From a virus: a stretch of DNA of 64,000 nucleotides. The position numbers and the translations under genes are program-made. The notes under the pieces were generated by a model, which did not search any database, was not told the origin of the DNA, and was given only the letters and a program-made list of their open reading frames with translations. The stretch is taken from positions 1 to 64,000 of the IMG/VR virus record IMGVR_UViG_3300027839_000007; one strand, 5' to 3'. This document shows, in pieces, positions 3,856 to 40,000 of the stretch. Positions within the stretch are counted from its first letter, which is position 1. Each line of letters begins with the position of its first letter.

Positions 3856-5006
3856 TGATGGACAGCACGGTGAAGCCGTTAAACCCAACTCTCTACGAGA
3901 GGTTAACGCGAGAGTTCGGGTTGGTAATGGTTGCCAATCAGGGAGAGGCCTACATTCCCTCGTTGCGCTCCATGAGCATTCGAGAAGGAGAGCGTAACGC
4001 ACCAGCCGTAGCTTACGGTGAGTACTACCGCGTGTGTTGCCCCTTCTGCAATGACGCGCGGCATCGTCTTTGGGTGAATCATCGATTCGGCGTATACGAT
4101 GAGGTCCAACGGAGTAAGAATCTGCATCTCGCCATTTGTTACAACGAGGGCTGCATCAGTTCCGCTGCGCGCAGGCACCAGTTCGAGAACATGGTGTATC
4201 GCGGAATCAACTGGAGACGTCGGCGGGATACCATGGTGCACGCCGGTGGCGAAGAGGTGCCCATTTCGCTGTCTGCAGTAGACCCTCCCGGGTCAGTGAT
4301 ACGTCTGCGTGATCTGCCGAGCCAGCACGCCGCGATCCTTTATCTGGAGGAGCGTGGTTACGACATCAACGAGCTGGATAGCGTTTTCAATATCTCGTAC
4401 TGCGAGGTGGCGCGGCCTGAATACCCCACCGCTACCAACCGGATAGTGGCGCCGGTGCATCTGCACGGCGAGCTGGTAGGCTGGCAGTGTAGGTACATCG
4501 GGGATGCCAACTGGAACTACACCGGCATACCCAAGTACTACACGCGACCAAAGATGCCCAAGCGACGGATTCTGTACAACTACGATGTTGCGTCACGGCA
4601 TTACCCCGTTGTGCTGGTCGAGGGTGCTACAGACGTATGGTCAGTTGGTCCGCAGGCCGTGGCTGTTTTTGGGAAGAGTTTGCATGAGATGCAAGCCCGG
4701 TTGATGGCGGAAACCTGGTCGGGTGGTGTCGCCGTGATCATGTTCGATGGCGATGCATCTAAAGAGATTGATGCCGTTACCGCGCGGTTATTGCCCGTCA
4801 TGTCTGGTGGTGTCGTGCCGGTACAACTTCCGGCGGGTAAAGACCCCGCAGATTTTGACCGAGATACCCTTTGGGAAATTATTCACAACTCAGCGCGCGA
4901 GCGTGGAGTACAACTTCGAGTAGAGGCAAATGCAACCGACGTTTCCCATGTTGGACGCGGAGTTTCGGCAACTGCTGTTGGCCGACGACGTCGACGGGCT
5001 TTTTGA
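3852..5006 (+). CDS. DNA primase (Zn-finger + TOPRIM)
   Basis: CPFC zinc-binding motif, VEGATD and FDGD TOPRIM motifs, KDP motif. Confidence 0.85.
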   Translation: MMMDSTVKPLNPTLYERLTREFGLVMVANQGEAYIPSLRSMSIREGERNAPAVAYGEYYRVCCPFCNDARHRLWVNHRFGVYDEVQRSKNLHLAICYNEGCISSAARRHQFENMVYRGINWRRRRDTMVHAGGEEVPISLSAVDPPGSVIRLRDLPSQHAAILYLEERGYDINELDSVFNISYCEVARPEYPTATNRIVAPVHLHGELVGWQCRYIGDANWNYTGIPKYYTRPKMPKRRILYNYDVASRHYPVVLVEGATDVWSVGPQAVAVFGKSLHEMQARLMAETWSGGVAVIMFDGDASKEIDAVTARLLPVMSGGVVPVQLPAGKDPADFDRDTLWEIIHNSARERGVQLRVEANATDVSHVGRGVSATAVGRRRRRAF

Positions 5007-8000
5007 CGAATACCCATTGTACGCGTTAAACAGCCCTGGGATGCCGCTCCCTGGTCCTGACTTTATTGCTGCATCGCAGAGTCTCGGAGATCCCGAGCCT
5101 GCGTACACAAAAGGACGGGTCAGTGAACGTAGTATCACGAACCCGGGCAAATACCTGAAATACCTGTACTGGCGGGCGCTGTATGACAGTCAGTTCGCGC
5201 TGACGGTGTCGCACAAGGGTCAGCAGCACGTTGTTGATTTTGTAGTGGGGCATCCATGGGGGCAGGAGGCGAGCGGGCCGGTGGCGCTCTCAGAGCACTA
5301 CCCGAAGGTGATGGTTATCGGTAAGCAGCCGAGCGTTAATGCAATCAGCTGGCCCACGGGCAGGCGTAACTTCGTTGGCCCCATCAGTGAGCCGCTCTAC
5401 AAGGCTGTTGGTGAAGCAGGAATACCTGAATCAGAAGCTTCCGAGTGGTACATGACTAACGTGGTACGCCATGTCAGTCCGCGGGCCAGCAGCGGGGCAC
5501 TGCCTGCTGCGTGGGTTAAAAACTGTGAGATCATTCTGCAGCAGGAGCTGCGACTGACACGTCCAGATTACATCCTGTGTCTTGGCAGCGAAGCGAGTAA
5601 GTGCCTGCTTGGGCGCGGGTACGGCGTCGAGGCCATGAAGGGGCGGGTGATGGACTATGAGTTCCCAACCCACGAGCTGGGCGCAACACCGGAACACCAC
5701 ACTGCGCGTGTCATGACCGCGGTACACCCTGCTGCCGTGCATCACACTCCTGAAAGGTACGATGAACTGCTGGGCACGATCAGGCAATTTTACTCACTGG
5801 CGCACGGGCAGCCGATTGGTTTCGCCGAAGATGATATCGAGCATCACGTTGTGTACAAGGAGCGCGAGCTAGCTCGTCTCGTGGATGAAGCGTTAGCTGA
5901 CCCGAGTGGTGACGTGATCGCGGTCGATGCCGAGTGGCATGGTGATTACCCGTGGGAGCCCAACTCCTACTTGCGTACCGTTCAGTGGTCACACCGGTCA
6001 AAGTTTGCCGTGTGTGTCGTGCTGAATCATGCAGGCGGGGAATCAGCCTTTGTGCCGTCAATTGATGCCGCGGCACGTCAGCTCAGCCGCTTGTTTGCTC
6101 GACCTGGCGTGAAGGTCGGTGGTCATTTCTTCAGGTCGGATCTCCCATGGCTCAGACACAAGCTGGGGCTGGATCTACGTGAGCAATATGCTGATGGCTT
6201 TGACACATCGTTGATGTGCCACGCACTACACGAGACAACCAGGTTCAAACTGGAAGAGCAGGCTGTTCGACGTACTGGGTGTCCTCGGTACGACACGGAG
6301 CTGGAGCAGTGGAAGACTGATTACTGTAAACAGAATGGGATAACCGCCAAGGACATGGAGGGATACGGTGAGTGTCCTGCAGAGGTTTTGCATCCGTACG
6401 CTAACTACGACGCAGACGTCACCAGGCGCCTGTACTCCGTCTTCGACGAGGAGCTGAACTCTGATGAGTTCGGTAATGACTGCAGAGATGCTTATGCCAC
6501 TAGTCACAAGGCATCGCTGGCTTTCCTTGAGATGGAGCAAAGTGGGCTGCTCGTAGACATGGAACGGGCAGAGCACTTGATCAGGTTGTTCAGTGAAGCA
6601 AAATCTCGTGAAGTGGAGTCGTTGCGGGCAGAGCTTGGGTGGGCTGAGTTCAATCCTGCGTCATCGCATCATTGTCGCGCTGTCCTGTTCGGAGATCGGC
6701 ACGCGTTCAAGATGTTACCCGACGGCACGCAGCAGTTGATGCGCCCTGACGGCGTTGTGACGCTCAATCTGCAGCCCATCACTAGCACGGGCGCACGTCC
6801 ACAGAGCTGGGACGACATTTGTACCCGGAACGAGGAGCACCTGCACACCCCATCAACCAACCGTGAGACCTTGGGTATCCTGGGCCAGCAGCATCCGATT
6901 GCTGCGCAGATCCGGGACATTCGGTTCTTGGACCAGGTATTGAAAACCACCTTGCGACATTCCGTGGTGGACGAGCAAGGTTTGCCCGAGCTCGACGATG
7001 ATGGGGACAAGATTTACAAGCAGGGTCTTCTGTCCCACGTCAGCAGCGACGGGCGTATCCACACGCACCTGATGCAGATCTTGGAGACTGGGCGAGCGTC
7101 TTCGGCACGCCCCAATCTTCAGAACATAAGCAAACGGCGTGAAGACGATTACCGCCGCATCATAGGTGAGCGGTACGAGTATCCAATCCGGAGTATCTTT
7201 GCGGCCAGTCCTGGTCACTTGCTGGTGGAGGCTGATTATACGGGAGCCGAACTGGCTGCGATCATGTGGTTGGCTGATGACCCCACTGGCATCGAACATG
7301 TACGCAGGAACATGCTTCCTGAGGTCCATGACGACCACTATGACATCCATTCCCAGGCAGCAGTCCGTGCGTTTCGCCTGGACTGCCTGCCAACCAAGAG
7401 CGGACTCAAGGATGCTGGGGTTTCCGGTATGCGGGTTGCGGCGAAGAACGTGAACTTCGGGATACCATACGGACGTGGCGCAGCTGCAATCGCGCGGCAG
7501 TGTCGTGAAGAGGGCGTGGATATCGTCGAATCTGAAGCGCAGCTACTGATCAACAATTACTTTGAGACATATCCCGGCGTCGAAGGATTCTTATCCAAAT
7601 GCCGCGAGCGTGCCACGGATCAGAGGTGGTTGCGTAATGCCTTTGGGCGGTACAGGCGCTTCTATGAGATTTCTCCGGATCTCCGTTCCAAGGTCGGCGA
7701 GGCAGAACGGCAGGCGCAGAACTTCCCGATTCAGTCCCTTGTGGCTGACGCAATGAGTCTTGCGCTGCACAATCTCTACGAGTATCGCAAGCACCATGAT
7801 GTTGATTACCGGATCGTGTTGCAGATTCATGATGCCGTCCTTCTTGAAGTGCCGTATCGGCACATGCAGGAAGTGTGTGAAGTCGTATTGCCCAAGTGCA
7901 TGACCGAAGATGTCCCGGTATATCCGAATGACATCGATGGCACGCTTTGGCAGGAAGGGCAACCAGGTCCGTACTACCTATCCACTGATGTAGATGTATG

Positions 8001-8064
8001 TCGTTACTGGGGTCAGACCCTGAGTCCGGCCGAGGTGGCGCAGTTCATAGAGGAGGAAGAGTGA
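4930..8064 (+). CDS. polA: Family A DNA polymerase with N-terminal uracil-DNA-glycosylase-like domain and 3'-5' exonuclease
   Basis: UDG family-4-like motifs (IGKQP, FVGP, TNVV, LCLG, HPAA); exo DAE...YANYD; TGRASSARPNLQNI; motif A DYTGAE, motif B RVAAKNVNFGIPYG, motif C QIHD. Confidence 0.92.
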   Translation: MQPTFPMLDAEFRQLLLADDVDGLFDEYPLYALNSPGMPLPGPDFIAASQSLGDPEPAYTKGRVSERSITNPGKYLKYLYWRALYDSQFALTVSHKGQQHVVDFVVGHPWGQEASGPVALSEHYPKVMVIGKQPSVNAISWPTGRRNFVGPISEPLYKAVGEAGIPESEASEWYMTNVVRHVSPRASSGALPAAWVKNCEIILQQELRLTRPDYILCLGSEASKCLLGRGYGVEAMKGRVMDYEFPTHELGATPEHHTARVMTAVHPAAVHHTPERYDELLGTIRQFYSLAHGQPIGFAEDDIEHHVVYKERELARLVDEALADPSGDVIAVDAEWHGDYPWEPNSYLRTVQWSHRSKFAVCVVLNHAGGESAFVPSIDAAARQLSRLFARPGVKVGGHFFRSDLPWLRHKLGLDLREQYADGFDTSLMCHALHETTRFKLEEQAVRRTGCPRYDTELEQWKTDYCKQNGITAKDMEGYGECPAEVLHPYANYDADVTRRLYSVFDEELNSDEFGNDCRDAYATSHKASLAFLEMEQSGLLVDMERAEHLIRLFSEAKSREVESLRAELGWAEFNPASSHHCRAVLFGDRHAFKMLPDGTQQLMRPDGVVTLNLQPITSTGARPQSWDDICTRNEEHLHTPSTNRETLGILGQQHPIAAQIRDIRFLDQVLKTTLRHSVVDEQGLPELDDDGDKIYKQGLLSHVSSDGRIHTHLMQILETGRASSARPNLQNISKRREDDYRRIIGERYEYPIRSIFAASPGHLLVEADYTGAELAAIMWLADDPTGIEHVRRNMLPEVHDDHYDIHSQAAVRAFRLDCLPTKSGLKDAGVSGMRVAAKNVNFGIPYGRGAAAIARQCREEGVDIVESEAQLLINNYFETYPGVEGFLSKCRERATDQRWLRNAFGRYRRFYEISPDLRSKVGEAERQAQNFPIQSLVADAMSLALHNLYEYRKHHDVDYRIVLQIHDAVLLEVPYRHMQEVCEVVLPKCMTEDVPVYPNDIDGTLWQEGQPGPYYLSTDVDVCRYWGQTLSPAEVAQFIEEEE

Positions 8065-11553: not shown

Positions 11554-12098
11554 TGGTAGGGTGGGATGATGTAGTCGAGGAGCCTGCAGGCAACTGGACC
11601 AAGCAGTCAATGGAAGACGGCATGGTCAAGAAGGTCATGCAGAAAACCGGATTGATCTACAACCTTGAGAACCTGCGCCAACGTTGCCAGGAGGCGACGG
11701 GGCGCAGGGACCTCAACTTTGAGTGGTTTCATGACGAGTACCCCAGCTTTCCCGTCAGGTTGACAGCCAGAAAAGCCTATTGGTTGCGGGACATGTTGGT
11801 TGAGGACATATACAAATCGTTCACCCGGACCACGGCGTTCCGTGCGTATGAGTCCGCCTGCGAAGAACTAGACGTTGATCCACGATCGGAAGCGTTCGGG
11901 GTTATTTTCAGGTGGCCCGGGATAGCTACCATGGTGCTACACAACTACATGATTGACGAAGAGTTGATCGACATAGGCACATCGTGGACTAGAATTACCC
12001 GTACGATCGGTAACGTCAGTCCGCGGGTTACATACGCGTACGACGAGTTGGATTTTTTGCTTCATGCCATCAGTAACGAGTGGGAGCAGCACGGATAG
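11553..12098 (+). CDS. Hypothetical protein
   Basis: Translationally coupled ORF (TGATG). Confidence 0.6.
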   Translation: MVGWDDVVEEPAGNWTKQSMEDGMVKKVMQKTGLIYNLENLRQRCQEATGRRDLNFEWFHDEYPSFPVRLTARKAYWLRDMLVEDIYKSFTRTTAFRAYESACEELDVDPRSEAFGVIFRWPGIATMVLHNYMIDEELIDIGTSWTRITRTIGNVSPRVTYAYDELDFLLHAISNEWEQHG

Positions 12099-13230
12099 CC
12101 TTAGTCTGTACGTGAAGCCCCGTAAAAAGTCGTTCTCGTGCCCAATCAAACTGGAGCGGGAATTGCGTGAGACGGATGAGGGTACTGTCATTTACCCCCC
12201 ATCCTCTGCTGATGAGCTAATGCTGAAGTCAAACGGGACGACTAGGGTGCACGGTAACCGGTACACCGTTCCGGCGTTCAACTCCGTGGCGCAGGCGGTG
12301 GCACCAGGCTTGTCGCTGCTGGTGCCCAATATTGCCGGTATCAACCGTAGGCCGCGTAGTTCTAGGGAGGCGTTCTCGCAGAAAGAGGCCATCCGTATTT
12401 TCAACGCGATTGTGGACCTACGTTTCGATGATGACCTGTCCTTGTGTCAGATTGTCGTCAATGAACGGGATGGGCACATAGAGGGATTGCTAGGGCCCAA
12501 GACGCAGTATCTTGAAAATCTGACTCTCTTTCAGATGATACAGGACATGCTGGGTGACACTGTCGATACGGAATTTTGTGAAGGCCTGGTAGCTGGCAGG
12601 CACTTGATGCTGCGTTACACGCACACAGAGGAACTAATCACGATAGACGGCGAGGAGCCTGATGCCTTCTATTACGGTTACCATTTTGCGAACAGTGAAT
12701 CTGGCGACGCCAGCGTACGCGCTGCGCCGTTGATCTACCGCGCGCTTGACGGGACTGGTTCTCTGATCCACCTTAAGGAGGCGGGGAGACAGTTTCACAC
12801 GGGTAAGGATTTTGCCGCCAAGCTGTCCCATCTGGTTTCGTCGGTACTGCTGACAGATACCGACAGCGCGCGTCTACGTGCATCCTTGGTAGCCATGTCA
12901 AAGCGCACCCTGGACCTTGATCCCGAGACGCCTGGTGCTTTAAAGAGACAAATGGAATCACTGGCGCAATCCCTGCGATACGATACCAAGGCCGTAACCA
13001 ACGCCATGGCACGAAATATTGTTAAGCACTCTGTGTACGTGGGTAGTTACGGCGCGGAGCCTGACACCGATGTGGAATACCTTACGCACCGTAATAGCGT
13101 CATACGGGAGCGTACCCAGTTTGATGTGTACAACGCTATAACCCGTGAAGCACAACGTTTATCCATCCCGGTGCGGGAGGGAGTTGAGCGCACGGCACAC
13201 GACTATATGGTTCGAACAGGAGTGGAGTAA
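12064..13230 (+). CDS. DUF932-like protein
   Basis: GYHFANSESG..S....IYR and C-terminal FDVYNAIT resemble DUF932 motifs. Confidence 0.5.
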   Translation: MPSVTSGSSTDSLSLYVKPRKKSFSCPIKLERELRETDEGTVIYPPSSADELMLKSNGTTRVHGNRYTVPAFNSVAQAVAPGLSLLVPNIAGINRRPRSSREAFSQKEAIRIFNAIVDLRFDDDLSLCQIVVNERDGHIEGLLGPKTQYLENLTLFQMIQDMLGDTVDTEFCEGLVAGRHLMLRYTHTEELITIDGEEPDAFYYGYHFANSESGDASVRAAPLIYRALDGTGSLIHLKEAGRQFHTGKDFAAKLSHLVSSVLLTDTDSARLRASLVAMSKRTLDLDPETPGALKRQMESLAQSLRYDTKAVTNAMARNIVKHSVYVGSYGAEPDTDVEYLTHRNSVIRERTQFDVYNAITREAQRLSIPVREGVERTAHDYMVRTGVE

Positions 13231-14153
13231 TGGCAAAGAACGAGAACCCACTGGCTAAGTACGAGAAGACGACCGAGGCAGTCGAGCAGCTCAGTGCGGA
13301 GGCCCAGGAGCTGTATCACGCGAAGATTGACGCTATCCGTTCGATGAACGAAGATTTGCGTCAGCAGTACGACGAGATGTTGGATACCGCCGAGGTGCAG
13401 TTCAAGGAAACCCTTGATTTCTACTACGCGCTTGGCAACAAGTTGTCGAGTATTGAGACGTCTAACGAAGAAACGTACGGACCTGCGCCTATCGATAAAT
13501 TGGTGGCTGCTTGGTCAATTGGTGAGAGCCTTATCTACAAGTGCCTGGATTTCGCTCAGCAGTACACACAGTCAGAGTTCGACGCGCTACGAGAAATCGG
13601 CATTTCATGGACGCACACCACCACTCTCCTAGCGATACACGATAAGACCGTACGCGAGGAGTTACAGCAGCGAGTTGGCCAGGAAAACCTTTCAACTCGT
13701 GAGCTGGGTAAGCTGGTCAAAGATATGAATACAGCTAACCAGCGACCGGCAAACTCTCCCGGCCGCGCTTACCAGCAGCCGCGTACTATCGCAGCCGGGC
13801 TAGATCAGATGACAACCGTTTGCGAGAAGTGGGAGAGGCAGAACGCGTCGGTGTGGGCCGGGGAAGATGACTCCGTCCTGGCATCGCTGGAGGCCATGCC
13901 CACAGAGGAATACGGTGATCAAATTGCTGAAAAGCTGGATCAGGTAATTATCACAATGGAAAGACTGGCTGCTTTGGCTACGGCAAACGCCAGTCGAGGC
14001 AACCGTATTCGAGAAACAGTTAACGCGGCTCTTGACCCGCAGGCAGATGATGAGGAAGATAATTCAACAGAGACAACAGAGACAACTGATGAGATGCAGG
14101 AGGCAACAAGCGTAGCGCGGCGCGCACTACGACGAGCCCGTCGAAATCAGTAA
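13230..14153 (+). CDS. Putative DNA-binding protein (DUF1016 N-terminal / ParB-like helical domain)
   Basis: ISWTH...LL...R..L....LSTREL pattern; helical; stop codon lies inside first repeat of array 1. Confidence 0.5.
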   Translation: MAKNENPLAKYEKTTEAVEQLSAEAQELYHAKIDAIRSMNEDLRQQYDEMLDTAEVQFKETLDFYYALGNKLSSIETSNEETYGPAPIDKLVAAWSIGESLIYKCLDFAQQYTQSEFDALREIGISWTHTTTLLAIHDKTVREELQQRVGQENLSTRELGKLVKDMNTANQRPANSPGRAYQQPRTIAAGLDQMTTVCEKWERQNASVWAGEDDSVLASLEAMPTEEYGDQIAEKLDQVIITMERLAALATANASRGNRIRETVNAALDPQADDEEDNSTETTETTDEMQEATSVARRALRRARRNQ

Positions 14154-14260
14154 CCAGTTGATTGGCGGGTACCAAAGATGTTGCGTCTAGCCTTACTTCT
14201 GGTCAGTAACACGCCACAGGTGCGTAACCAAGGTTGTAGCTTGTAACAAGATGACTGTGT
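14146..14260 (+). repeat. TIGR-like dual-repeat array 1 (3 units, 37-bp period)
   Basis: 11-nt repeats at 14146, 14183, 14220 (partial 14257); 10-nt repeats at 14165, 14202, 14239; all spacers 8 nt. Confidence 0.75.
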
Positions 14261-14292
14261 TTATTTCGTGACAAGGATGAGGATATAGTGGC

Positions 14293-14499
14293 ATGGCTTT
14301 TGGCGAGATCACAAAGCTTACTGACCGCGGTTTTGGTTTCATTAAATCAGACCAGGCCAGTAAAGAGATTTTCTTTCACGTATCAGCTTTACAGGGCGTG
14401 AGTTTCGATGACCTGTATGAAGGTCAGCGCGTTTCCTTCAGCGAGGGCCAAGGAGATAAGGGGCCCCGCGCAGAGGATGTGACAGCAATGGCTGAATGA
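14293..14499 (+). CDS. csp: Cold-shock domain protein
   Basis: RNP1 RGFGFI, RNP2 IFFHVS, KGPRAEDV; 68 aa. Confidence 0.92.
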   Translation: MAFGEITKLTDRGFGFIKSDQASKEIFFHVSALQGVSFDDLYEGQRVSFSEGQGDKGPRAEDVTAMAE

Positions 14500-14502
14500 G
14501 CT

Positions 14503-15609
14503 ATGCCAAGCTGCACTGTAGCCGTACTCCTGTACGCTGACGAGTATCACGTTTTGCATCGTCGGTGCTTGGAGTCTATCCGTGACCAACTCCCTGCTGG
14601 TGAGTACGAGCTGCGCGTCGGCATAAACGACGTTTCAGCGGAATCGGTGACGCGGGAGCTTATCCGAGGACTCCAAGTCAAAGGAGTCCTGGAGGAGCGC
14701 AACATATACAGCTCCCCAGATAACATCCGAAAGTATCCCATGATGCGTCGGATGTTTCACGACGCGTCGAACCCCATCACGACCCCATTCGTGATGTGGT
14801 TCGACGATGACTCGTACTTGAAGCCCACGTTCGACTCCCAGAACTGGGCGCAGATCCATGACATGATGGATTCGGCGTCCATGATCGGGTCGACTTATTC
14901 GATTGGGCTTGAAGGCAACCAGAAGCAGTGGATAGAGGATCAGTCCTGGTACACCGGTAAGCCGACGGCTAAGAAGATATCGTTTGTTACCGGTGGTTGG
15001 TGGTGTTTGGCATTGGATGTGATCAACCGTTTCGATTGGCCAGTACAGGCTATCGATCACTGTGGCGGAGATATGATGCTCAGTGCGTTGATGTACCAAC
15101 AGGGCCTCAGCGTGCAACGGTACAGTGCTGACGTAGCAATTAATGCAGACGGCACAGGTCGTGAGAGCCGCGCCCCCCGCAGGGGAGTGGATCAAAAGCG
15201 AATAGGTGTCGACTACGAGCCTGGTGTGACGAAGCAAATTTACGATGCAATTACCACGGGGTACGCCTCATCGGCGGTCCTGGCATCAAATGCATACACA
15301 CCAGAAAAGGCGAGGTTGGAGGAGATCAATGATCTTCTACTGAATCTCGTGAAAAGTATGTCCGATGACTTGAAAACCTTTGGGCAGCTAAGGAAGATGG
15401 CACAGACAGCAAGCAATGAAGCAAAGTCACGAGCTACTCTCTTGGAAGCGTGGGCGCAGGGTGATATGGAGACTCTTGTAAATATAAGCAGAGAGTTTTC
15501 CATTCCGCTTGTGTCCGCTCAAGGCGAGAAAATTGTGACGACATGGATCGAGCAAATAAAGCCTTTGGTCGATGAAGCAGTGGAGATCTGCGAAAACAGC
15601 AAGCAGTGA
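14503..15609 (+). CDS. GT-A (GT2-like) glycosyltransferase with helical C-terminal extension
   Basis: RRCLESI, WFDDD DxD motif, GGWW, GGD. Confidence 0.65.
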   Translation: MPSCTVAVLLYADEYHVLHRRCLESIRDQLPAGEYELRVGINDVSAESVTRELIRGLQVKGVLEERNIYSSPDNIRKYPMMRRMFHDASNPITTPFVMWFDDDSYLKPTFDSQNWAQIHDMMDSASMIGSTYSIGLEGNQKQWIEDQSWYTGKPTAKKISFVTGGWWCLALDVINRFDWPVQAIDHCGGDMMLSALMYQQGLSVQRYSADVAINADGTGRESRAPRRGVDQKRIGVDYEPGVTKQIYDAITTGYASSAVLASNAYTPEKARLEEINDLLLNLVKSMSDDLKTFGQLRKMAQTASNEAKSRATLLEAWAQGDMETLVNISREFSIPLVSAQGEKIVTTWIEQIKPLVDEAVEICENSKQ

Positions 15610-15621
15610 ACGGAGTGAGCA

Positions 15622-15945
15622 ATGCGCATAAGGCAACTTAATCTGTTTGAGCAAACGCACGGCGAGGCGCGAGACGCAGCATTGAATTTACTGGAAGAGA
15701 AGAGAGCAGAATTGATTTCCTGTGCAACGCAGATAGCGCAGGAGATCGCCCAACAGCTGGGTGTGGTGACCAGTCCAGCAGTGCTGGATAGGTTGCAGAA
15801 GGAGCACCCTGAAGCTGTTGCTGGCGTAGATCGCCGGTTCATGGGCGCGGTTTTTCGGCGCAATCGTGGTTGGACCCGAGTGGGATGGGCTGCCCAGGGC
15901 AGCCATGCACGTCCTGTGAGTGTTTGGAAACTTACTGACGAATAA
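15622..15945 (+). CDS. Hypothetical protein
   Basis: GGAG RBS; MGAVF...SHARPVSVW motif. Confidence 0.6.
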   Translation: MRIRQLNLFEQTHGEARDAALNLLEEKRAELISCATQIAQEIAQQLGVVTSPAVLDRLQKEHPEAVAGVDRRFMGAVFRRNRGWTRVGWAAQGSHARPVSVWKLTDE

Positions 15946-16013
15946 TCTGCAGCTGTGCGTAGTGTCAGAGTGACATTGAATTTTTTTTTCAGGCAAACAA
16001 GGAACTTGTTCTT

Positions 16014-16313
16014 ATGGCGACCATTCCTCAACTTTGTGGCACATTGATGCAACAGTGCGTGTGCCTTGACGAGCAACTGAATACCGTTGGTTTTCAACTG
16101 GCAGTTTCTCCGCAGACGACTACAACGGCAACCGGGTCGTCCGGGTCGTCCGGTATCAAGAAGATGGCCCGCAAAACAAAAACGGGCGCGTCGAACCAGG
16201 CCAAGAGTGTTGCTGGCTATTGGTCAGCAATTAAGGCGCATCAATCAGAAACTAGCTGCACCCTGCCCGAAGCCCGGGCGTGGTACAAGACAGTCAGTAG
16301 TTGCACGAACTAA
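16014..16313 (+). CDS. Hypothetical protein
   Basis: 99-aa ORF between AT-rich gap and structured 3' region. Confidence 0.45.
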   Translation: MATIPQLCGTLMQQCVCLDEQLNTVGFQLAVSPQTTTTATGSSGSSGIKKMARKTKTGASNQAKSVAGYWSAIKAHQSETSCTLPEARAWYKTVSSCTN

Positions 16314-16431
16314 CGATCCCGTCCTGAAGGGTGAGCACCTGGCGCCCCGTGACCTGACCTAGGAGGTCACATTTAGGCGTTTAAAATTTAGAGAGTAGTC
16401 ATGTGACACTCTTCGACGGGATTGAAGAGCG

Positions 16432-16470
16432 GGGGCAGGGTCTGTTTCTCAGGCCTTGCCCCTGTTTTAT
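16432..16470 (+). terminator. Putative Rho-independent terminator
   Basis: GGGGCAGGGTCT/AGGCCTTGCCCC stem (G-U pairs) followed by TGTTTTAT. Confidence 0.6.
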
Positions 16471-16475
16471 TGCCC

Positions 16476-17321
16476 ATGCCTGATTTCAAAACATATTCTA
16501 TTAAGCGTGTGATCAAGCTGCGTAACAGGCTTAGAAATGAAACGGCTATACCCTACTACGCATGCACGGTGGAGGGTGACGATTTCAATCAGTTTGTCCG
16601 CGCTTTTCATCGTGCGCTCCCGTCCGGCATTCCGCTGGATACTATGTACGAATCCATGCGTTATTTGGCTGGCGTTGAGTTGTCAGCAGAGCGCATAAAT
16701 GATCTCTCGTGGAGGTTGGCCGGTAACACCGACCGGCTTAAGGAGGGGACACCAGTACGGCCCTGGACTACACAACACAGTGATGAATGGATTCCGCTAC
16801 AAATACTGAGAGCAATTCCGCGTAGGAGCACCGGCGAGCGCTTCGGTTGCATGTTTTGTTTTCAGGTATTGGCCGGTACCTCCTGTCCATTACAGGTGTA
16901 CCGTTTCTGGGGAAATGATGCGTGCTACGCTATTTCGCAGCACATCGGATTCACGCCTCACTGGCGTAGCTATCCGTATACGCACCCGATGCATCTGGTT
17001 GGCATGAGGTTCTACGCGTTGGTGGAGCCCAATATGTGCCGGGAACATCCTGGGTTTTTCCGTGTTGAGAGCTCCCCCTCTTTTGAGGCGCATAACAAAG
17101 CTATCCTCAAGCACCGGGTGAAGCAGCCGCACGCTGCGCACTGTCCTCGTGGATTCGAACACGAGTGCCACAAGTGCATAATTGGTTATACGAGCTGTCC
17201 CGGCGGCACTCACAAAGAGGATTACGTGGAGGGGGTATGCCCTAATTGTGGGCCAGACCAGTGGTTTGATCCTGAGGCTGGTTCTGACTTATGTGTTGCG
17301 TGCGCGCATTCGCACACATAG
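16476..17321 (+). CDS. Hypothetical protein with Cys-rich (Zn-binding) C-terminus
   Basis: CHKC, CPNC, CVAC motifs; ATG after terminator. Confidence 0.6.
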   Translation: MPDFKTYSIKRVIKLRNRLRNETAIPYYACTVEGDDFNQFVRAFHRALPSGIPLDTMYESMRYLAGVELSAERINDLSWRLAGNTDRLKEGTPVRPWTTQHSDEWIPLQILRAIPRRSTGERFGCMFCFQVLAGTSCPLQVYRFWGNDACYAISQHIGFTPHWRSYPYTHPMHLVGMRFYALVEPNMCREHPGFFRVESSPSFEAHNKAILKHRVKQPHAAHCPRGFEHECHKCIIGYTSCPGGTHKEDYVEGVCPNCGPDQWFDPEAGSDLCVACAHSHT

Positions 17322-17358
17322 AATTACTGGTAGGTAAAACCACAGCACGGAGCACACA

Positions 17359-17847
17359 ATGGGCATGCAGATGCGCCCCCAGGGCGGCGACCCCAGGTTC
17401 TACGCGCCAAACCGCGATATTGCGTATTGTTTCACGCATATAGTGCGCGTAGCACTGGCCGCGTTGGATGACGAAGAGAAGCGCCCGCCCTGGATAGCGG
17501 ATTACATGGAGTACACCGGAACCACGCAAGACGACCTTTGCGCAGCAGCCAAGGCGATGGCAGACGGTATTGCACACTTCGTGGATGCTGATAAGCCGCC
17601 TGAGACACCGCATGAGTCGCTTGATCAGTCCGGTTTTCTCGACTCACCACCAGCCGCGCAGCTGATTCTCAGCGCCCGTATTGGGCAGGTGCTCACCGGC
17701 TTGTTTTTTACCGCGGTTCGCGACATTACCCCTGCAGGAAGCAGGTCACCGGTCAGTGATGACATGGCAACGATGGTAGCTGAAGCAGCGAGACTCACAG
17801 ATGACATTGAATCAACAAAAGCTGACAGGGCTGCTGGAAGCAGCTAA
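17359..17847 (+). CDS. Hypothetical protein
   Basis: 162-aa ORF with GGAG RBS. Confidence 0.6.
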   Translation: MGMQMRPQGGDPRFYAPNRDIAYCFTHIVRVALAALDDEEKRPPWIADYMEYTGTTQDDLCAAAKAMADGIAHFVDADKPPETPHESLDQSGFLDSPPAAQLILSARIGQVLTGLFFTAVRDITPAGSRSPVSDDMATMVAEAARLTDDIESTKADRAAGSS

Positions 17848-18706
17848 GCGGGCAGTTGTTCGGAGCAGGCACAGGGCAGAGCTTAGTCCTCAGGAAGAGG
17901 TAATCCGAATGGTGTTAGGTACATGGTTTGCCGATTTCAACGATGCTGTCGGCAATTTCCCAGACAACTACATAGTTTTCGACCTGGAAACCACCGGGAC
18001 TGTCTTCGGTAACAAGGCGCACGTGAAAGGGTACCACGACTTGATCACGCAAATTGGGCATTGCGTTGTCAAGGATCGCAAGCGAGTTGCCAATGACGGG
18101 CTCATACTTAATTGGTACGACCCCCAGTACGAAGACCTACACGAGTACCCGGACGTCATGACCGAAAACTGGCTGTCGGATAGCCTGGATCGGTTGGTGC
18201 AAATTTTCGAAGACAAGGGTCGCACCTATCAGGTTCCCGTCGAGCGTATGCGGGCGGAGGGCGGTGATCCACTGCATGTCCTCGACTTCTACTACAAGCT
18301 GTTCATGGATGCACGAGCTGAGGCTTTCTTCTTCGTTGGGCACAACGCCCACAGTTTCGACGGGAAGTTTCTCAGGTACCATTTCCAGCAGTACCTGAAC
18401 AAGGATTTCAAGTTCGGCGCCAACGAGCTCCTGGATACCGGAATGGTTGAGAAGGCATCGCAGATGCCCGGCAGCAACCTGCCCTGGCCCGGAGACACGA
18501 TCAAGGAATGGTCAGAGCGCATATACAACGTACCCATGCGAGTGAAGTGGAACCTTGATCAGCACTGTGCTGACAAATACAAGCTCATGGAGCGGTTCGA
18601 GCTTGAAGGTGAAGCCCACGATGCTGGGTTCGACTGCCTGTTGACTCATCACCTCTTTGAGACTTATCGAGAAATAGCGGCGGAGGAAGCTGGTAATGGC
18701 GAGTGA
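17801..18706 (+). CDS. DEDDh 3'-5' exonuclease (DnaQ-like)
   Basis: FDLETTG, GHNAHSFD, AHDAGFD. Confidence 0.85.
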   Translation: MTLNQQKLTGLLEAAKRAVVRSRHRAELSPQEEVIRMVLGTWFADFNDAVGNFPDNYIVFDLETTGTVFGNKAHVKGYHDLITQIGHCVVKDRKRVANDGLILNWYDPQYEDLHEYPDVMTENWLSDSLDRLVQIFEDKGRTYQVPVERMRAEGGDPLHVLDFYYKLFMDARAEAFFFVGHNAHSFDGKFLRYHFQQYLNKDFKFGANELLDTGMVEKASQMPGSNLPWPGDTIKEWSERIYNVPMRVKWNLDQHCADKYKLMERFELEGEAHDAGFDCLLTHHLFETYREIAAEEAGNGE

Positions 18707-18914
18707 GCGGCCGGATCCGCAGTACCGTTCGATTCGGCCGCGTCTTCTCAAGATGCTTCCGACCACTAAACGCGTATGTCTCAAGTGTAATAAGGAGTTT
18801 ACATCTCTCGGAAAGATTAATCGTTTGTGCCCTACTTGTAACACTGACAACATCCAGCGGTCAAAGCGTGCTGGCGATGATCCGGTTACTGGGAATCCGT
18901 ACTCTGATAGCTAA
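18696..18914 (+). CDS. Small Zn-finger protein
   Basis: CLKC...CPTC. Confidence 0.55.
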   Translation: MASERPDPQYRSIRPRLLKMLPTTKRVCLKCNKEFTSLGKINRLCPTCNTDNIQRSKRAGDDPVTGNPYSDS

Positions 18915-18929
18915 AAAAAGGAGCCATAC

Positions 18930-19376
18930 ATGACCACTGTACTTGGAGTGGATCCAGGTAAGTCGGGTGCGCTGGCTCTAGTGGGCAGCCTAGGCGCGAT
19001 CGACGTATTCAAGTTGGATAACACGGAGCGAGATATTTGGGATTGCTTGAAGGAATGGCGTGAAAAAATTGACTGCGCCTACATTGAACGCGTATCTGCT
19101 ATGCCTCGACAGGGCGTTTCATCCACCTTTAAGTTTGGTACCAGTTACGGGTTTTTGCGTGGAATGTTGGTAGCGTCGGAGATCCCGTTTGAAGCGGTGA
19201 CACCCGCCAAGTGGCAGCGCACCCTGGGTTGCCTGACAAAGGGCGACAAAAACGTGACCAAGTCAAAAGCGCAGGAACTGTTTCCTAATATCAAGATCAC
19301 GCATGCCGTAGCTGACGCTCTTTTGATAGCCGAATACGGAGTACGGGATTATAAAGATGCAGGTACACAACAGTAA
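18930..19376 (+). CDS. RuvC-like Holliday junction resolvase
   Basis: GVDPGKSGA, IE, FKFG..YG, P..W, ADALLIA. Confidence 0.85.
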   Translation: MTTVLGVDPGKSGALALVGSLGAIDVFKLDNTERDIWDCLKEWREKIDCAYIERVSAMPRQGVSSTFKFGTSYGFLRGMLVASEIPFEAVTPAKWQRTLGCLTKGDKNVTKSKAQELFPNIKITHAVADALLIAEYGVRDYKDAGTQQ

Positions 19377-19629
19377 TTCCAACATAACGTCGGACGGTTT
19401 ACCTCGCTGCGAGACCGTATATGGTTTTGCGGGTGCTGGTTTTCCTGGCCTACTCCACAGGTGCGAGAATTCCGCTACCGCGTGGGAGACGCTCCTGCGC
19501 GAGAAAGTGAGCCCAGAGGCTTGGGCGCATCAATCCGTTAATCGGCGCGTGTGTGATACCTGCCTCGAACGGCATAGTGATGCCAAGAGGCGACGCAAAC
19601 GCGGCGATGAGTTGACGGATGATGAATAA
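19357..19629 (+). CDS. Hypothetical protein
   Basis: 90-aa ORF in tight operon. Confidence 0.45.
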   Translation: MQVHNSNSNITSDGLPRCETVYGFAGAGFPGLLHRCENSATAWETLLREKVSPEAWAHQSVNRRVCDTCLERHSDAKRRRKRGDELTDDE

Positions 19630-19728
19630 ACTGGGGCCCAGCGGATCATATTTGGTAGCGGCAATTGTAGCGCTGGGTATTTTTTCACTGCTGGCCGACT
19701 ACTTCGGCTGGTTAAAGGGAGATGACTG

Positions 19729-30305: not shown

Positions 30306-30378
30306 TCTTTCGGGGTGCCGCCACCCATGAAAATTGATAAGCTACGTATTGTTCCACATACACGAAAGGATTCGACTG

Positions 30379-30708
30379 ATGGCACATAACGACAGTAACC
30401 TGAGCGCGTCTCAAAATGCTCACGCTGAAGAACGTGAGCGGCAGGCAGCGGCGGCGGTGGAAGAGGCCAAAAAGCCTCGCCGTATTCTTCAACCTGGCTG
30501 TGGCTGGGAATGGACCAATGGCGGGATCGTTGACGAACCCGTTGACGAACCCGTTGACGAACCCGTTGACGAACCCGTTGATGAGCCCGTTGACGAACCC
30601 GTTGATGAGCCCGTTGACGAACCCGTTGACGAACCCGTTGACGAACCCGTTGATGAGCCTATCACCATGGATAAGACGAAGAGCCGTCGCAAGAAGTCTG
30701 ACAAGTAG
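30379..30708 (+). CDS. Small protein with (VDEP)11 acidic repeat and basic tail
   Basis: AAGGA RBS, ATG 30379; repeat in frame. Confidence 0.65.
   Translation: MAHNDSNLSASQNAHAEERERQAAAAVEEAKKPRRILQPGCGWEWTNGGIVDEPVDEPVDEPVDEPVDEPVDEPVDEPVDEPVDEPVDEPVDEPITMDKTKSRRKKSDK
30529..30660 (+). repeat. 12-bp tandem repeat GTTGA(C/T)GA(A/G)CC(C/T) x11
   Basis: Direct count; variants are synonymous (coding VDEP). Confidence 0.95.
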
Positions 30709-30726: not shown

Positions 30727-31911
30727 ATGAGCGACGACCTCAATGCTCAGGAACCTGAGCAAGATGAGTTTTCTGAGCCTGAGGCTATTGTAGACGACCT
30801 GGGACTGGACCTGGATATTCCTATCCCTCCGGAACCAGTGTCGTCTGGTGAGCCGAAGGACTCGTTCGAGTACGACGTTGCATTCAACCTCGCTTTTGTG
30901 GGTGTTGGCCAAGGCGGCTCTCGCCTGGCTGAATCCTTCTACAAGCTGGGTTATAAGCGCGTCGCTGCAGTCAATACGGCACTGCAGGATTTGAACTCGA
31001 TCTCGATTCCCGAGCGTAACAAGCTCGATATCGGTGGCGGCGGGGCTGGTAAAGATCCGGCTGTCGCTGCTGCTGCTATCGCCGACAAGGATGAGGACGT
31101 TTACGACGTGCTCAAGCGCTCCTGGGGTCGTGACGTTGACTATGCAATTGTCTGTCTTGGCGCAGGTGGTGGTACCGGTGCTGGTGCAACTCCCAAGATC
31201 ATCGAAGTAGCTCGTCGATTGATGGCGGAAAATGGTCGCCCGGTGCGTGTCGGTGTCATCGTTGCCCTGCCCAAGAACAGCGAGGGTCAGAAGCCAGCCA
31301 AGAATGCGCTCCACACGGTGCGCCAGCTGATCAAGCTTCGGCCCTCCCCGGCCATCGTTCTGGATAACGAGAGAATCAGGGAACTCTATGATCCCTCGCC
31401 AAGCAAAGAATACCCCCTGGCTAATAGCAGCATTGCGAAATATGTTCATCTCTTTAACAGGTTGGCCGCGCAAGACAGTGACCACACGTCGTTTGATCAG
31501 GCTGATCTGGGCCGGTTACTCGACTCCGGTGTCGTTGCATTCGGTGCCCAGCGCATCACGGCCTGGCAAGATGCAGCGGACATCTCACACGCTATTCGCC
31601 AGCAACTCAGGAAAAATATCCTGGCGTCTATCGACCTTACAAAGGGACAACAGGCGGGATTGATCTTTGTGCTGGGTAATGACGTGTACGACGACATCAG
31701 GTCATCCACCCTGGATCACGGCTTCGAGATGATGAACCGGATCCTTGCCGACGGGTCTACCGTGTACCGCGGTGTCTATAAAGGCAGCAGTGATGGCCTG
31801 ACCGCGCTCAGTCTCGTGGCCGAGCTGCCCTGGCCCGCCGAGAGATTGCACGAGCTTGCGCGACTCGGCGGAGTTGACAAGAAGACCTTGAAGGACTGGT
31901 TAGGTGTCTAG
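30727..31911 (+). CDS. Tubulin/FtsZ-family GTPase (PhuZ/TubZ-like)
   Basis: GVGQGGSRLA, VNTA..D, GAGKDP, tubulin signature GGGTGAG, LDN, FDQAD T7-like loop. Confidence 0.9.
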   Translation: MSDDLNAQEPEQDEFSEPEAIVDDLGLDLDIPIPPEPVSSGEPKDSFEYDVAFNLAFVGVGQGGSRLAESFYKLGYKRVAAVNTALQDLNSISIPERNKLDIGGGGAGKDPAVAAAAIADKDEDVYDVLKRSWGRDVDYAIVCLGAGGGTGAGATPKIIEVARRLMAENGRPVRVGVIVALPKNSEGQKPAKNALHTVRQLIKLRPSPAIVLDNERIRELYDPSPSKEYPLANSSIAKYVHLFNRLAAQDSDHTSFDQADLGRLLDSGVVAFGAQRITAWQDAADISHAIRQQLRKNILASIDLTKGQQAGLIFVLGNDVYDDIRSSTLDHGFEMMNRILADGSTVYRGVYKGSSDGLTALSLVAELPWPAERLHELARLGGVDKKTLKDWLGV

Positions 31912-37070: not shown

Positions 37071-40000
37071 TGGCTGACAAACCGGTATTTCCTTCTCTCC
37101 TTAACATTGGGGAAGAGAAGAAGAAGAAAGAGGAGCGCGAGCGTCGTAAAGACCCCAATTTTCCCTGGATGCCGCTCGGGGTTGCTGGTGGCCTAGGGCT
37201 GGGCGGACTCGGCGCATATCAGGCTGGGCGCGGCATGGGTGCTGTCGGAGAGGCTACGTTCGCAGACTTTTATGATTTTATGCACAAGGCACGCGGAGGG
37301 GCTCCGTCATTTAAGCCCTGGGACTGGGTAAAAGGTAAGCCCTGGGAAGCCAACCCAGACGCCGTCGCCAGTTTCGAGGCCGACGAGGCTAAGGGCCGGT
37401 ACTTTGATGCCATACAGCCCAGCGAAGCTCTTCTCAAAGCTCGCGTGTCCAGCCTTGACACGAGTGTTTTGCAGCAAGGGAACGATGTTATCTCGTTCAC
37501 CTTAAACGCCGAGGATATGCTTGGCTCCCAGATGGGATATTTCGGACTGGGTGCCACCCTGATGGGTGAGCCTCTCTACGAAGGAGGGGCTACCGGCCTT
37601 GACGCTATGATGGGGGCGCGTAGTCCCAGGCAGAACTGGTGGTTTAAGAAGCTTTTTCCTATTGATGATATTTATGCTGGGCATGGCACCACCAAGTCGC
37701 AGTTCGGAGTTGATCCCACGCGGGGCTGGCCAGGTAAACGAGAAGAGACGACAACCAAGCACAAGCTTCCCGGCCTCGCCAGAGGTGAGAAGATTGAATC
37801 ATCCCCAGGCCACAAGAGTGATAGTCAGACTGACAAAAGCCGACTTAGTGGGTATGTGCTGCCAGAGGCGTTGTACAGGGGTACCCCTGAGACAAATCCC
37901 AGGCACTGGAAACATCATGCGCGTAAGCTTCGTGGATTAGATTTCCCCAATACGGGGGGTGCTTGGTTACAACAACCCCGTCAGCAGGATCTGGCTGAGA
38001 AACACCAGCACCGCGAGGTTGCGCGTTGGCCACACACCGACCCGAATACTGGACAAGATGTAGGCGGGTACTGGGGTGGTGTCGAGGGGCATTACGGAGG
38101 GTTTTCTAGAAGCCCTGCGCATGCAATGGAGCAGCTCTATCTCGAAACGTATAGCGCCGTAGACGGAAGCATTAATAAGCTTGGCCAGGCTAGGCAATAC
38201 GCACTCCAGCAAGTTGCCCAAGGACTTAATCCGGCTAGTTTTAAAGAGGCCTACATAGATAAGTTTGTAGAGCTGTGGAGCCCGGTTGATACAGAGGGGC
38301 AGCACCCGTGGTCACAGGACTTCATGCCACAGCAAGGTGAAACTTCACTGGCCGCCCGAGCTAAGGCCCAGGCTGCGCTGGCCGCGGCACAAGCCAACCA
38401 GAAAAAGTACCTGGAGCTTCATCCGGGCCTGCAGCCTGGCGACGCGGGGCCGGTCGATGTTACGCAGACGCAGGCGCAGACGCAGGCGCTGGCTAAGGCG
38501 GTAACTGAGGCCGAGACCGCGTCGACGGCCGCCGCTCGTCCGTGGACAACGTCAACCGGTTTGCTCGGAGCGGCTACGGCTACTGCAACAAAGCAGCCAT
38601 TTGTACGCAGAAAGATACGTAATACTGCGTCAAAGATCATTGATGTCGTAGAGAGAAGGCTTGCGGAGCGTGGGGGACAGCCCGAGCGCGGCCTTGATCC
38701 TACCTGGGAGGCCAAGTACCCCGTTAACTTAGCTGCGCTACAAAAGCAGCGTGCCGCTGATCCGCTGTCTGCCACGTACAACAAGAAATTTGTTGATCAG
38801 ACGCCCGCTATCAGGCATGTACTTGGCCTCAAAGATCATAAAGCCACTGCCGAGGCCATGCATGACGTACAGCGACATGCTATGAAGATTCAAGAAGAGC
38901 TGGCCGAGCAGGGACTGAATCCGCTGGAAGTCACCAAGAAGATTTATGAGTCTTTGCAGGATCCGCAAAACGAACAACTGGGGACGATTGCTCAGCTGGC
39001 TTCTACTGGTGGCGGTCCTCTTGTTTTTCCATTATCTGCAGTCGCTTACAGGGCGATTGGAGAAGCCATGGCTGTGCCCGGGCACGTTGCGCGGGGAGCT
39101 AAAGCATTGTCACCGTATTTCAAGTATATTGGTGCAGGGATGCTTGGACTGGGATCCATCTACGGGATTCATGCGATACATAAGTACTTCAAAGAAAAGC
39201 GGCGGTTCGAAGAACAAGAAGAAGAATTAGAAAAGGAGAGCGCTGTGAGTGCCTTTCTAAAGTTTGCGAGTGATCTCATTACCAAGAGTGCGGCTGTTGG
39301 TGATGATGATGATAAGGATGACTCCAAGTCTGATAAGAAGTCAGACAAGCCTAAGGCTAAGCCCAAGGCCAAAGCCAAGGCTAAGCCCAAGGTATCCAAT
39401 GAACCGGGATCCGCTAGCGCTGAGGGTAAGTCTGACGAACCCAGCTATGCGAAGGAGCCACGACCCAATCTGACATGGGGCGAGGAGTGGGACGAGAGCA
39501 AGATTGATCCAGACTACCGTCCGTACTTGGATGAAAGACAGGACGCTAGTACCAGAAGCTCTGCACGTATTTCCAATGAACGACGAAAACGTTTCAACAA
39601 TCCCAGCAGCGGTGGGTTCACGTATAATGCCCAAGGTAGCCGACGTAAGATGCGACCGGGCGAGAGTTACCCGAATGAAGATCAGTTTCTCTTCCAGGCT
39701 CTTGCTAAAAACCCTAATTATTTGACGAACCCAGAGGCGATCAAACACTACAAACAGAAGTATCCTGGTTTGATTAGGAACGCTGCACAGGCTCGTCGGG
39801 AGAACCGTCGAGGCGGCGGCCAAAGCATTGCCCAGAGTTGGCGCGCATACAGTCAAAAACGGAGTCGCGTTCCGCAGAAGGAGGTTGATCCACAAGCTAA
39901 GGGGCCTAGGGCAGGTGGGGCGAAGTCTAAAGCCCAGGGGCAGCAGCCGTCAGCACCTGCTCAACCATCGACTGGCGATGCAGCCATTGAAGAACTCAAG

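Follow-up and report, generated by a model that had tools for sequence, protein, structure and literature searches.

A probable TIGR-type dual-repeat array, small and partly degenerate, at the stop codon of a ParB-like phage gene

We analysed a stretch of 64,000 nucleotides (nt) from the viral record IMGVR_UViG_3300027839_000007 of IMG/VR (positions 1 to 64,000; hereafter the window), in which an earlier note, made from the sequence alone, had drawn attention to a short repeat array at 14146-14260. The phage derives from marine metagenomes and its whole record has 85,545 bp. The array in question (array 1) is located on the plus strand at 14146-14256 and consists of three exact 37-nt units followed by a truncated last repeat; each unit is made of an 11-nt repeat, an 8-nt spacer, a 10-nt repeat and another 8-nt spacer, with no indel in the register. 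A longer array (array 2) lies some 7 kb downstream. The 11-nt A repeat is called here the edge repeat, as it opens and closes the arrays and bears an extra pair; the 10-nt B repeat (G3, AGUA, C8) is called the loop repeat. The features of the locus are as follows.

13230-14153, plus strand: gene upstream of array 1, coding for a helical, ParB-HTH / DUF1016_N-like protein of 307 aa; its TAA stop codon (14151-14153) is within the first repeat.
14146-14156, plus strand: 5′-truncated first edge repeat of array 1, ATCAGTAACCA, which retains the 3′ half TAACCA (box C).
14146-14182, plus strand: unit 1 of array 1; edge repeat ATCAGTAACCA, spacer A GTTGATTG, loop repeat GCGGGTACCA, spacer B AAGATGTT.
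14183-14219, plus strand: unit 2 of array 1, its most degenerate unit; edge repeat GCGTCTAGCCT, spacer A TACTTCTG, loop repeat GTCAGTAACA, spacer B CGCCACAG.
14220-14256, plus strand: unit 3 of array 1; edge repeat GTGCGTAACCA, spacer A AGGTTGTA, loop repeat GCTTGTAACA, spacer B AGATGACT.
14257-14267, plus strand: 3′-truncated terminal edge repeat of array 1, GTGT, then the T-rich TTATTTC.
14293-14499, plus strand: gene directly following array 1, coding for a 68-aa cold-shock protein (Pfam CSD, E 8e-19).
20688-21365, plus strand: gene before array 2 (225 aa, no family found); its TAG stop codon is 2 nt ahead of the first repeat.
21368-21706, plus strand: array 2, a well-kept sister array; nine 37-nt units (21368-21700) with edge repeat GCGTGCAACCA, loop repeat GCGAGTACCA and 8-nt spacers.

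Most of what the earlier note had read from the letters was borne out. The 11/8/10/8 register and the exact 37-nt period of array 1 are those of array 2; the first repeats, AATCAGTAACCA in array 1 and AATCAATAACCA in array 2, agree at 11 of 12 positions, and the last B repeats, GCTTGTAACA and GCTAGTAACA, at 9 of 10. No spacer of one array recurs in the other: the six spacers of array 1 and the 18 spacers of array 2 are all different, every one being 8 nt long. Both arrays start at or just after a stop codon, array 1 containing the TAA of its upstream gene and array 2 following a TAG that ends 2 nt before it. Array 2 opens with ATCAATAACCA and closes with a truncated edge repeat, GCGTGC, followed by T7 at 21711-21717.

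We assessed the match with position weight matrices built from the nine A and the nine B repeats of array 2, the score being summed over three units. The score at 14146 was 53.8; outside array 2 the next scores were 21.3 at 14183, which is array 1 shifted by one unit, and -2.6 at 13052, the best unrelated place. On the minus strand the best score was 8.5, located inside array 2. None of 200 simulated genomes (first-order Markov, same size) reached the observed score, with a maximum of 8.7. The earlier note had also proposed a gapped-motif scan and had named comparable hits in shuffled sequence as evidence against the kinship of the arrays. With the motif ACCA-N8-GNGNGTAMCA-N8-GNG (one mismatch at most) we observed 11 matches in the window, two in array 1 and nine in array 2, and comparable hits were not seen in 100 shuffles (mean 0.04, largest count 1). 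When the whole 85,545-bp record was scanned for single units, 10 were detected, each of them within one of the two arrays; thus there is no third array on the record. Tandem Repeats Finder (31 rows) missed both arrays, and a second repeat search of the region missed them as well, having picked up just one 8-nt pair. The Rfam search of 13000-23000 (E up to 1) returned solely a partial cspA match, under the gathering score, and a chance match to a microRNA.

The arrangement is that of TIGR arrays as described in the available part of Faure et al. (2025, PMC12045711): two alternating repeats of 8-12 nt with short constant spacers, two per unit and mostly of 9 nt (8-12 nt are known), the first edge repeat being truncated at its 5′ side and the last one at its 3′ side. 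According to the same text, TIGR repeats end in CCA (box C) and start with a box D, the G of which is paired to the first C; adjacent to this box pair a further pair, supported by covariation, is present in the edge repeat, and the loop repeat is tetraloop-like. In TIGR-Tas systems a gene for a Nop-domain Tas protein is located beside the array, on either side of it or between arrays, and the array RNA is processed with the help of Tas into guides of ~36 nt that end within the edge repeat. By this description, both arrays of the phage have the two alternating repeats (11 nt and 10 nt), constant and all-different short spacers and truncated ends (ATCAGTAACCA...GTGT in array 1, ATCAATAACCA...GCGTGC in array 2), while the box C/D pairing, the extra edge pair and the tetraloop-like loop are found family-wide. 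Both repeats of arrays 1 and 2 end in CCA or a variant of it.

The pairing was analysed in an alignment (A3) of 65 units of 48 nt, from the phage and five metagenome contigs; raw counts were taken on all 65 units, and pairing percentages and shuffles on the 64 distinct rows (192 cells), for three chosen pairs. Loop position 3:8 was GC in 52 units, GU in 6, UA in 5, AU in 1 and other in 1. Edge position 8 with position 4 of the next edge repeat was AU in 62 units, GC in 2 and AC in 1; edge position 9 with position 3 of the next edge repeat was CG in 62 and UG in 3. Paired cells made up 99% of the alignment versus 92% in shuffles, the covariation score was reached by none of 500 shuffles, and with the partner slid by 1-3 columns just 4-67% of cells were paired. 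The units are related to each other, so that the UA cells may represent few events, and the two GC cells belong to one orthologous unit and count as one event. At the paired positions G-U pairs occupy nine cells and other mismatches two; this excess fits RNA, not a DNA palindrome. The loop repeat has one pair, G3:C8, closing the four bases AGUA, and the edge repeat has two pairs between successive repeats, as the available text describes for tigRNAs. The earlier note had seen geometry kept while sequence drifts and had supposed selection on a ribonucleoprotein or a protein-DNA scaffold; the common family and the ribonucleoprotein are supported, since the conserved positions are those required by a TIGR guide RNA and show RNA covariation, and the protein-DNA variant is disfavoured by the same G-U pairs. 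Judged by these features, array 1 is a small, partly degenerate TIGR-type dual-repeat array, a paralogue or sister of array 2.

Further arrays of the family were found in metagenome contigs. A pattern scan gave at least 116 stretches, with real family arrays in L009, L022, L023, L025 and L066 among the matches listed. The first array pattern found nothing in viral contigs; later matches in 185,579 species genomes (112 stretches, one match each) and in 26 viral stretches (single matches) were taken as chance. The L025 locus is an orthologue of the array 2 locus, with an upstream gene of 78% nt identity and the same junction, and it has other spacers. L022 (metagenome contig Ga0209402_10003825, 14,153 bp) contains four arrays (X1-X4) on the minus strand; they follow genes for a 744-aa acidic-tailed protein, a C92 peptidase-like protein (two arrays 85 nt apart) and a 233-aa protein. 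Other genes of this contig are a gpA-type terminase, an RNase H-like gene and a DUF6551/GmrSD_N (ParB-N-like) gene.

NNNNN-TAACCA opens array 1, array 2, the L025 array, L022 X1-X3 and the L009 array, and TAACCG is found in L022 X4 and L066. What had been described as a leader shared by arrays 1 and 2 is better read as a 5′-truncated edge repeat, of the kind that opens every array of the family. In array 1, L022 X1 and X2 and L009 the opening TAA is the stop codon of the upstream gene, and L022 X4 and L066 likewise hold a stop codon; L022 X3 opens with TAACCA and has no checked upstream open reading frame (ORF), while L025, like array 2, has a TAG ending 2 nt before the repeat. All arrays are co-directional with the flanking genes. 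Array 2 and the arrays of L022, L009, L023 and L066 follow unrelated genes.

Kinship extends to single units. The L023 unit GCGTGTAGTCT/TACTTCTG/GTTAGTAACA/CGCCGCAG is an orthologue of unit 2 of array 1, odd repeats included: spacer A agrees at 8/8 positions and spacer B at 7/8 (15/16 in all), and the flanks are unrelated. Both units have G at edge position 8 and C at position 4 of the next edge repeat, where 62 of the 65 units have A-U. L009 and L022 array X4 contain several units of array 2 that differ by point changes. Such recurrence across contigs indicates that units are inherited as blocks and shuffled between arrays. At window positions 21453-21497, a contig from the DNA run X13 has array 2 with one unit replaced (45 nt by the 8-nt spacer TCATCACC, net -37 nt), and its second junction matches L022 array X4, which suggests unit-level turnover between co-occurring strains.

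In other phages the same repeats are found beside Tas genes. Repeat-word scans with the loop and edge words gave mostly coding repeats of 9 or 12 nt (the IMG/VR scan for two copies of the loop-repeat word yielded 118 stretches, many of them coding repeats), and a locus was counted if it had at least three true dual-repeat units. The loop repeat G(C/A)GAGTACCA was observed in 16 such IMG/VR phage loci (GAGAGTACCA / GAGCGAGCCA, 36-nt period). A Tas-like ORF is directly beside the array in 10 of the 16 loci; of the remaining six, four have the array right at the end of the stretch, and leaving these aside the fraction is 10 of 12. One of the adjacent ORFs (278 aa) has PF02371 only and matches TasR 9MTY at 1e-16 and TasH at 9e-11, and is thus TasA-like. 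The arrays of this type (for example L351, L276, L281, L283 and L329) have the same loop repeat, 8-nt spacers and dual-repeat layout as here, and GAGAGTACCA is a variant present in array 2; unlike the arrays here, they have a 10-nt edge repeat, a 36-nt period and, in the 10 loci just mentioned, an abutting Tas-like ORF. Two loci of the GAGAGTACCA/GAGCGAGCCA type, L316 (4 units) and L319 (3 units), showed no Tas-like ORF in the stretch retrieved, which extends at least 1.8 kb beyond the array on each side; these, too, are candidate arrays at a distance from tas.

The edge-repeat word led to the IMG/VR record IMGVR_UViG_3300031623_000006 (G007; loci L409/L428; 57 kb, 85% complete), in which a six-unit array with edge repeat GCGTGCAACCA, 8-nt spacers and a 37-nt period is followed by a 303-aa Tas-like gene and then by a second array that begins at the tas stop codon (TAA-CAACCA). 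The edge repeat, the spacer length, the period, the truncated end and the position of the downstream array at a stop codon are the same as in the phage studied here; the loop repeat differs (GACTGAAACA versus GCGAGTACCA here), and a Tas-like gene stands between the two arrays of G007, whereas none was found on our record. Both repeat types are thus found in ordinary Tas-linked arrays, nor is the 37-nt period new. Three other loci (L399, L402 and L420 of IMG/VR) have three copies of GTGTGCAACCAC, 37-45 nt apart, with GC-rich palindromic stretches between them; they may represent a different, stem-loop-like arrangement using the same edge-repeat word.

Among characterized systems we compared the arrays with SpTIGR-TasH of Salicola phage CGphi29 (NC_020844), which has the repeats AAGACAACCA / AAGCGAGCCA, 8+8-nt spacers and CCA ends, with CAACCA and GCGAG in common. 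It differs in having 10-nt repeats, a 36-nt period (with one 37-nt unit), a gene for an HNH-Nop protein directly upstream and a hairpin terminator after the array. SpTIGR-TasH was shown experimentally to be processed and to guide DNA cleavage (available parts of PMC12045711 and PMC13421893). CRISPR arrays likewise have interspaced repeats and variable spacers, and are transcribed and cut into guides; they have one kind of repeat, 25-36 nt long, with spacers of similar length (PMC12045711, available part), while here there are two kinds of 10-11 nt with 8-nt spacers. No cas family was detected among 30 ORFs scanned with Pfam.

Taken together, we consider it likely (with a probability of about 0.62) that array 1 is a TIGR-type paralogue of array 2 and provides guides for a Tas protein supplied in trans. 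Array 1, which overlaps the stop codon of the ParB-like gene, would be transcribed together with this gene or immediately behind it. A dimeric Tas protein with a Nop domain, from the TasA-like family found with these repeats in other phages, would bind the transcript and recognize two elements of each repeat, box C (the CCA end) and box D (the paired G close to the start). Cutting within the 11-nt edge repeats could then give up to three 37-nt guide RNAs, whose two 8-nt spacers would pair with one strand each of a 16-bp DNA site. As the record yielded no Tas gene, the protein must come in trans, most likely from the unseen 58% of a genome of ~200 kb. The genome size follows from the completeness of the 85.5-kb record (42% by CheckV) together with the 185-kb contig of a relative.

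Several observations weigh against this interpretation. Searches of the 85,545-bp record for a Tas or Nop gene were negative with the Pfam families Nop and Transposase_20, with SpTasH as query, with the TasH profile in three methods (contig profile search, hmmsearch --max in six frames, hhalign of 110 frames), with a profile of 13 Tas-like ORFs taken from arrays with the same loop repeat, or with the 303-aa Tas protein of G007; the best E-values across these searches were 0.27-0.5. The record reaches 14 kb upstream and 71 kb downstream of array 1. The TasH profile (27 sequences of TasH relatives) recovers TasH itself and the archaeal TasR 9MTY (2.8e-22), so that the miss does not come from weak sensitivity in that clade. 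Nor did the TasA-like profile and the G007 Tas protein find a Tas-like gene in the five related metagenome contigs (L009, L022, L023, L025, L066), and L022 has no protein in common with the phage record; thus no candidate effector travels with the arrays. In profile-profile comparison with Tas the neighbouring gene families reached probabilities of 0.1% and 0.05%, the latter being that of the ParB-like protein. With 42% of the genome at hand, an effector acting in trans is indistinguishable from one simply not seen; with Tas absent from this incomplete record, the most likely and simplest reading is an effector that is encoded in the part not seen and acts in trans.

The state of array 1 itself is another such point, as it is the most degenerate array of its family. 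The unit scores were 14.5 for unit 1, 19.7 for unit 3 and below 14 (the listing threshold) for unit 2, compared with 28-35 for typical units. Only three of the six full repeats end in CCA, the others having ACA (two) and CCT (one). In unit 1 the loop pair G3:C8 is intact, as are both edge pairs formed with the following repeat; in unit 3 the loop pair is U3:A8, a compensated variant of G3:C8 that recurs as a tolerated variant and occurs in array 2 too; the loop pair of unit 2 is a C:A mismatch, where the orthologous L023 unit has U:A. Altogether 8 of 9 structural pairs are retained, including the G:C compensation that unit 2 has in common with L023. Given the CCA ends in three of six repeats and the one broken loop pair, some of the three guides may work poorly or not at all. 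Also, a scan for hairpins and rho-independent terminators at both array ends found none, and T-rich runs only; a predicted rho-independent terminator after the array is, in the available description of TIGR arrays, typical but not universal.

Two further lines of evidence concern targets and expression. All 12 units were searched for targets in the phage's own genome, with the spacers joined in both strand orders and gaps of 0-2; the 8-nt 3′ overhang and the ‘C - 5 rule’ (PMC12045711, available part) served to define the geometry expected of a target. There was no perfect site, and two sites had one mismatch, at 38789 and 5573. The first one (38789-38804) is a 16-bp match to unit 8 of array 2 (spacer B, then spacer A in reverse complement), with a mismatch at the first base and no gap; it is in the expected TIGR geometry, apparently in coding sequence, with a chance expectation of ~0.02-0.15, and the site at 5573 is in the other geometry. 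Twenty sets of shuffled spacers gave 0-2 matches per set (3 in all), and given these counts both sites were treated as chance. The earlier note had placed the arrays in 3′ untranslated regions. Their positions fit, and for array 1 the RNA data consist of assembled contigs from two seawater RNA libraries (X16, X17), at 13905-14207, 14210-14395 and 14259-14503, which by themselves show neither transcription nor RNA ends. None of the contigs of these libraries covers array 2, and there are contig ends within array 1; no weight was given to either observation.

The degeneracy of array 1 could also mean that it is a decaying relic, TIGR-type by descent (through duplication of, or recombination with, array 2-like arrays) and giving no working guides. 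The lowest unit scores of the family, the small number of units, the CCA ends confined to half of the full repeats, the C:A pair of unit 2 where L023 has U:A, and the more distant relative L256, in which the ParB-like and downstream genes are present with no array and the array is thus not needed for that module, all agree with such a decay. A relic would hardly be expected, though, to keep 8 of 9 pairs, among them a compensated G:C in common with L023 and a tolerated U:A, to keep the 37-nt register without an indel, or to preserve the spacers of unit 2 relative to L023 (8/8 and 7/8) in spite of unrelated flanks; we regard the relic as unlikely, if a serious possibility. That the arrays work without a Tas protein of the phage itself, as a decoy for a TIGR-Tas system of the host or of a rival, as a borrower, or with an effector of another fold, is improbable. 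Such a role would account for six arrays on ~100 kb (two here and four in L022) with no Tas-like gene and no gene family in common, the more so as sister array families have an adjacent Tas gene in 10 of 16 loci (10 of 12 where the array is not at the stretch end), and phage-borne repeat RNAs that inhibit CRISPR-Cas are known. Both contigs are, however, fragments, and the edge repeat of G007, identical to the one here, serves an ordinary TasA-like protein; repeats alone would suffice for a decoy, yet these arrays retain the spacer length, the two kinds of pairing and the truncated ends exactly as working arrays have them, and their units are passed on together with the spacers. In a broader form of this idea, the lineage scatters small TIGR arrays onto the stop codons of unrelated genes and may carry no Tas of its own, the guides coming from mRNA 3′ ends and serving a Tas of the host or of a co-infecting element, acting as decoys against such a protein, or working with an effector whose fold has so far no link to TIGR; we consider this speculation quite unlikely.

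The repeats could, on the other hand, be DNA sites, such as iterons or a centromere, bound by the upstream ParB-like protein or by another DNA-binding protein. Array 1 directly follows a gene of the ParB-HTH-like kind, centromere repeats often follow partition genes, and iterons and partition repeats behind parB-type genes are, like the repeats here, short and direct. What sets the arrays here apart from such sites is the RNA-type covariation with G-U pairs (nine cells, far more than the two with other mismatches), the fixed orientation with transcription and with the flanking genes, and the fact that the other arrays follow unrelated genes; besides, the ParB-like gene of L256 has no array and both repeat types occur beside Tas genes elsewhere. 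A DNA-site function is therefore very improbable. As for mere chance resemblance, single repeats of array 1 do score modestly each, but the observed values were reached in none of the 200 simulated genomes or the 100 shuffles and unit 2 has its homologue in L023, which makes chance a practically negligible explanation.

The kind of array is already known, and both of its repeat types have Tas-linked relatives; in this narrow sense the finding is an ordinary second, worn copy. What departs from the described layout is that several arrays are placed on stop codons of unrelated genes with no tas in reach, which on an incomplete genome may or may not be meaningful. The TIGRFinder catalogue, according to its available text, started from tas, covering the surroundings of 20,096 tas loci; with TIGR-Tas systems catalogued from tas genes outward, arrays far from tas would be missed. 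The word ‘orphan’ is absent from the available text of PMC12045711, and that of the TIGRFinder preprint contains neither this word nor ‘in trans’ or ‘multiple arrays’. The supplements of PMC12045711 (figs S4 and S14, table S1) and the TIGRSafari catalogue may list the family or its association with ParB. A literature search for TIGR arrays combined with orphan returned an unrelated paper only. If the complete genome has a distant tas, the supply of TIGR guides would be split over many transcription units, and possibly over stages of infection; if it has none, the arrays would be guide-only elements, such as decoys or borrowers. In either case the array family provides natural compensatory mutants of the tigRNA scaffold.

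The gene whose stop codon array 1 overlaps has Pfam matches to DUF1016_N (E 4.4e-7) and HTH_ParB (E 5.8e-4), both below the curated cut-offs. PF17761 was found in 7 of 7 homologues of the 307-aa protein, its structure neighbours in the Atlas are ParB proteins (TM 0.3-0.4), and its relatives P0005, P0007 and P0008 have 82-96% protein identity, P0008 being the one at 82% and encoded on a contig of 185,207 bp. TasA loci are sometimes in operon with ParB homologues (PMC12045711, available part). The preceding gene codes for a 388-aa protein that is DUF932-like by Atlas features and has 416 relatives. We considered this protein, as well as the 227-aa protein encoded after array 2, as a hidden Tas: the former has no Tas likeness, and the latter has four relatives and no family was found for it. 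A regular expression for the helix-hairpin-helix motif, applied in this check of the neighbours, gave no match.

In the more distant relative L256 the DUF932-like, the ParB-like and the downstream genes are present with neither an array nor a cold-shock gene between them. Since this module exists without the array, array 1 is a lineage-specific insertion rather than a part of the ParB-like module. An unrelated small ORF of L256 occupies the place where the array 1 locus has the cold-shock gene. In the phage collection, neither megablast with 12000-23000 nor tblastn with the two proteins that flank the arrays found anything, and viral and metagenome contigs gave no match when scanned with the 225-aa protein, the DNA polymerase or alignment A1 of the ParB-like protein.

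The phage record also encodes a DnaB-like helicase and a UvsX-like recombinase. The gene at 4930-8064 codes for a family A DNA polymerase of 1044 aa with an N-terminal domain of the UDG superfamily (Pfam UDG, E 2e-12) ahead of the 3′-5′ exonuclease domain. A gene of the tubulin/FtsZ family (Pfam Tubulin, E 2.5e-16) is located at 30727-31911; tubulin genes are a feature of PhuZ-bearing jumbo phages, and the lineage probably belongs to the jumbo phages. Just before the tubulin gene, a 124-aa ORF (30334-30708) contains at 30528-30653 a 12-nt tandem repeat, CGTTGACGAACC, in 10.5 copies with 92% matches, which presumably represents a four-residue peptide repeat.

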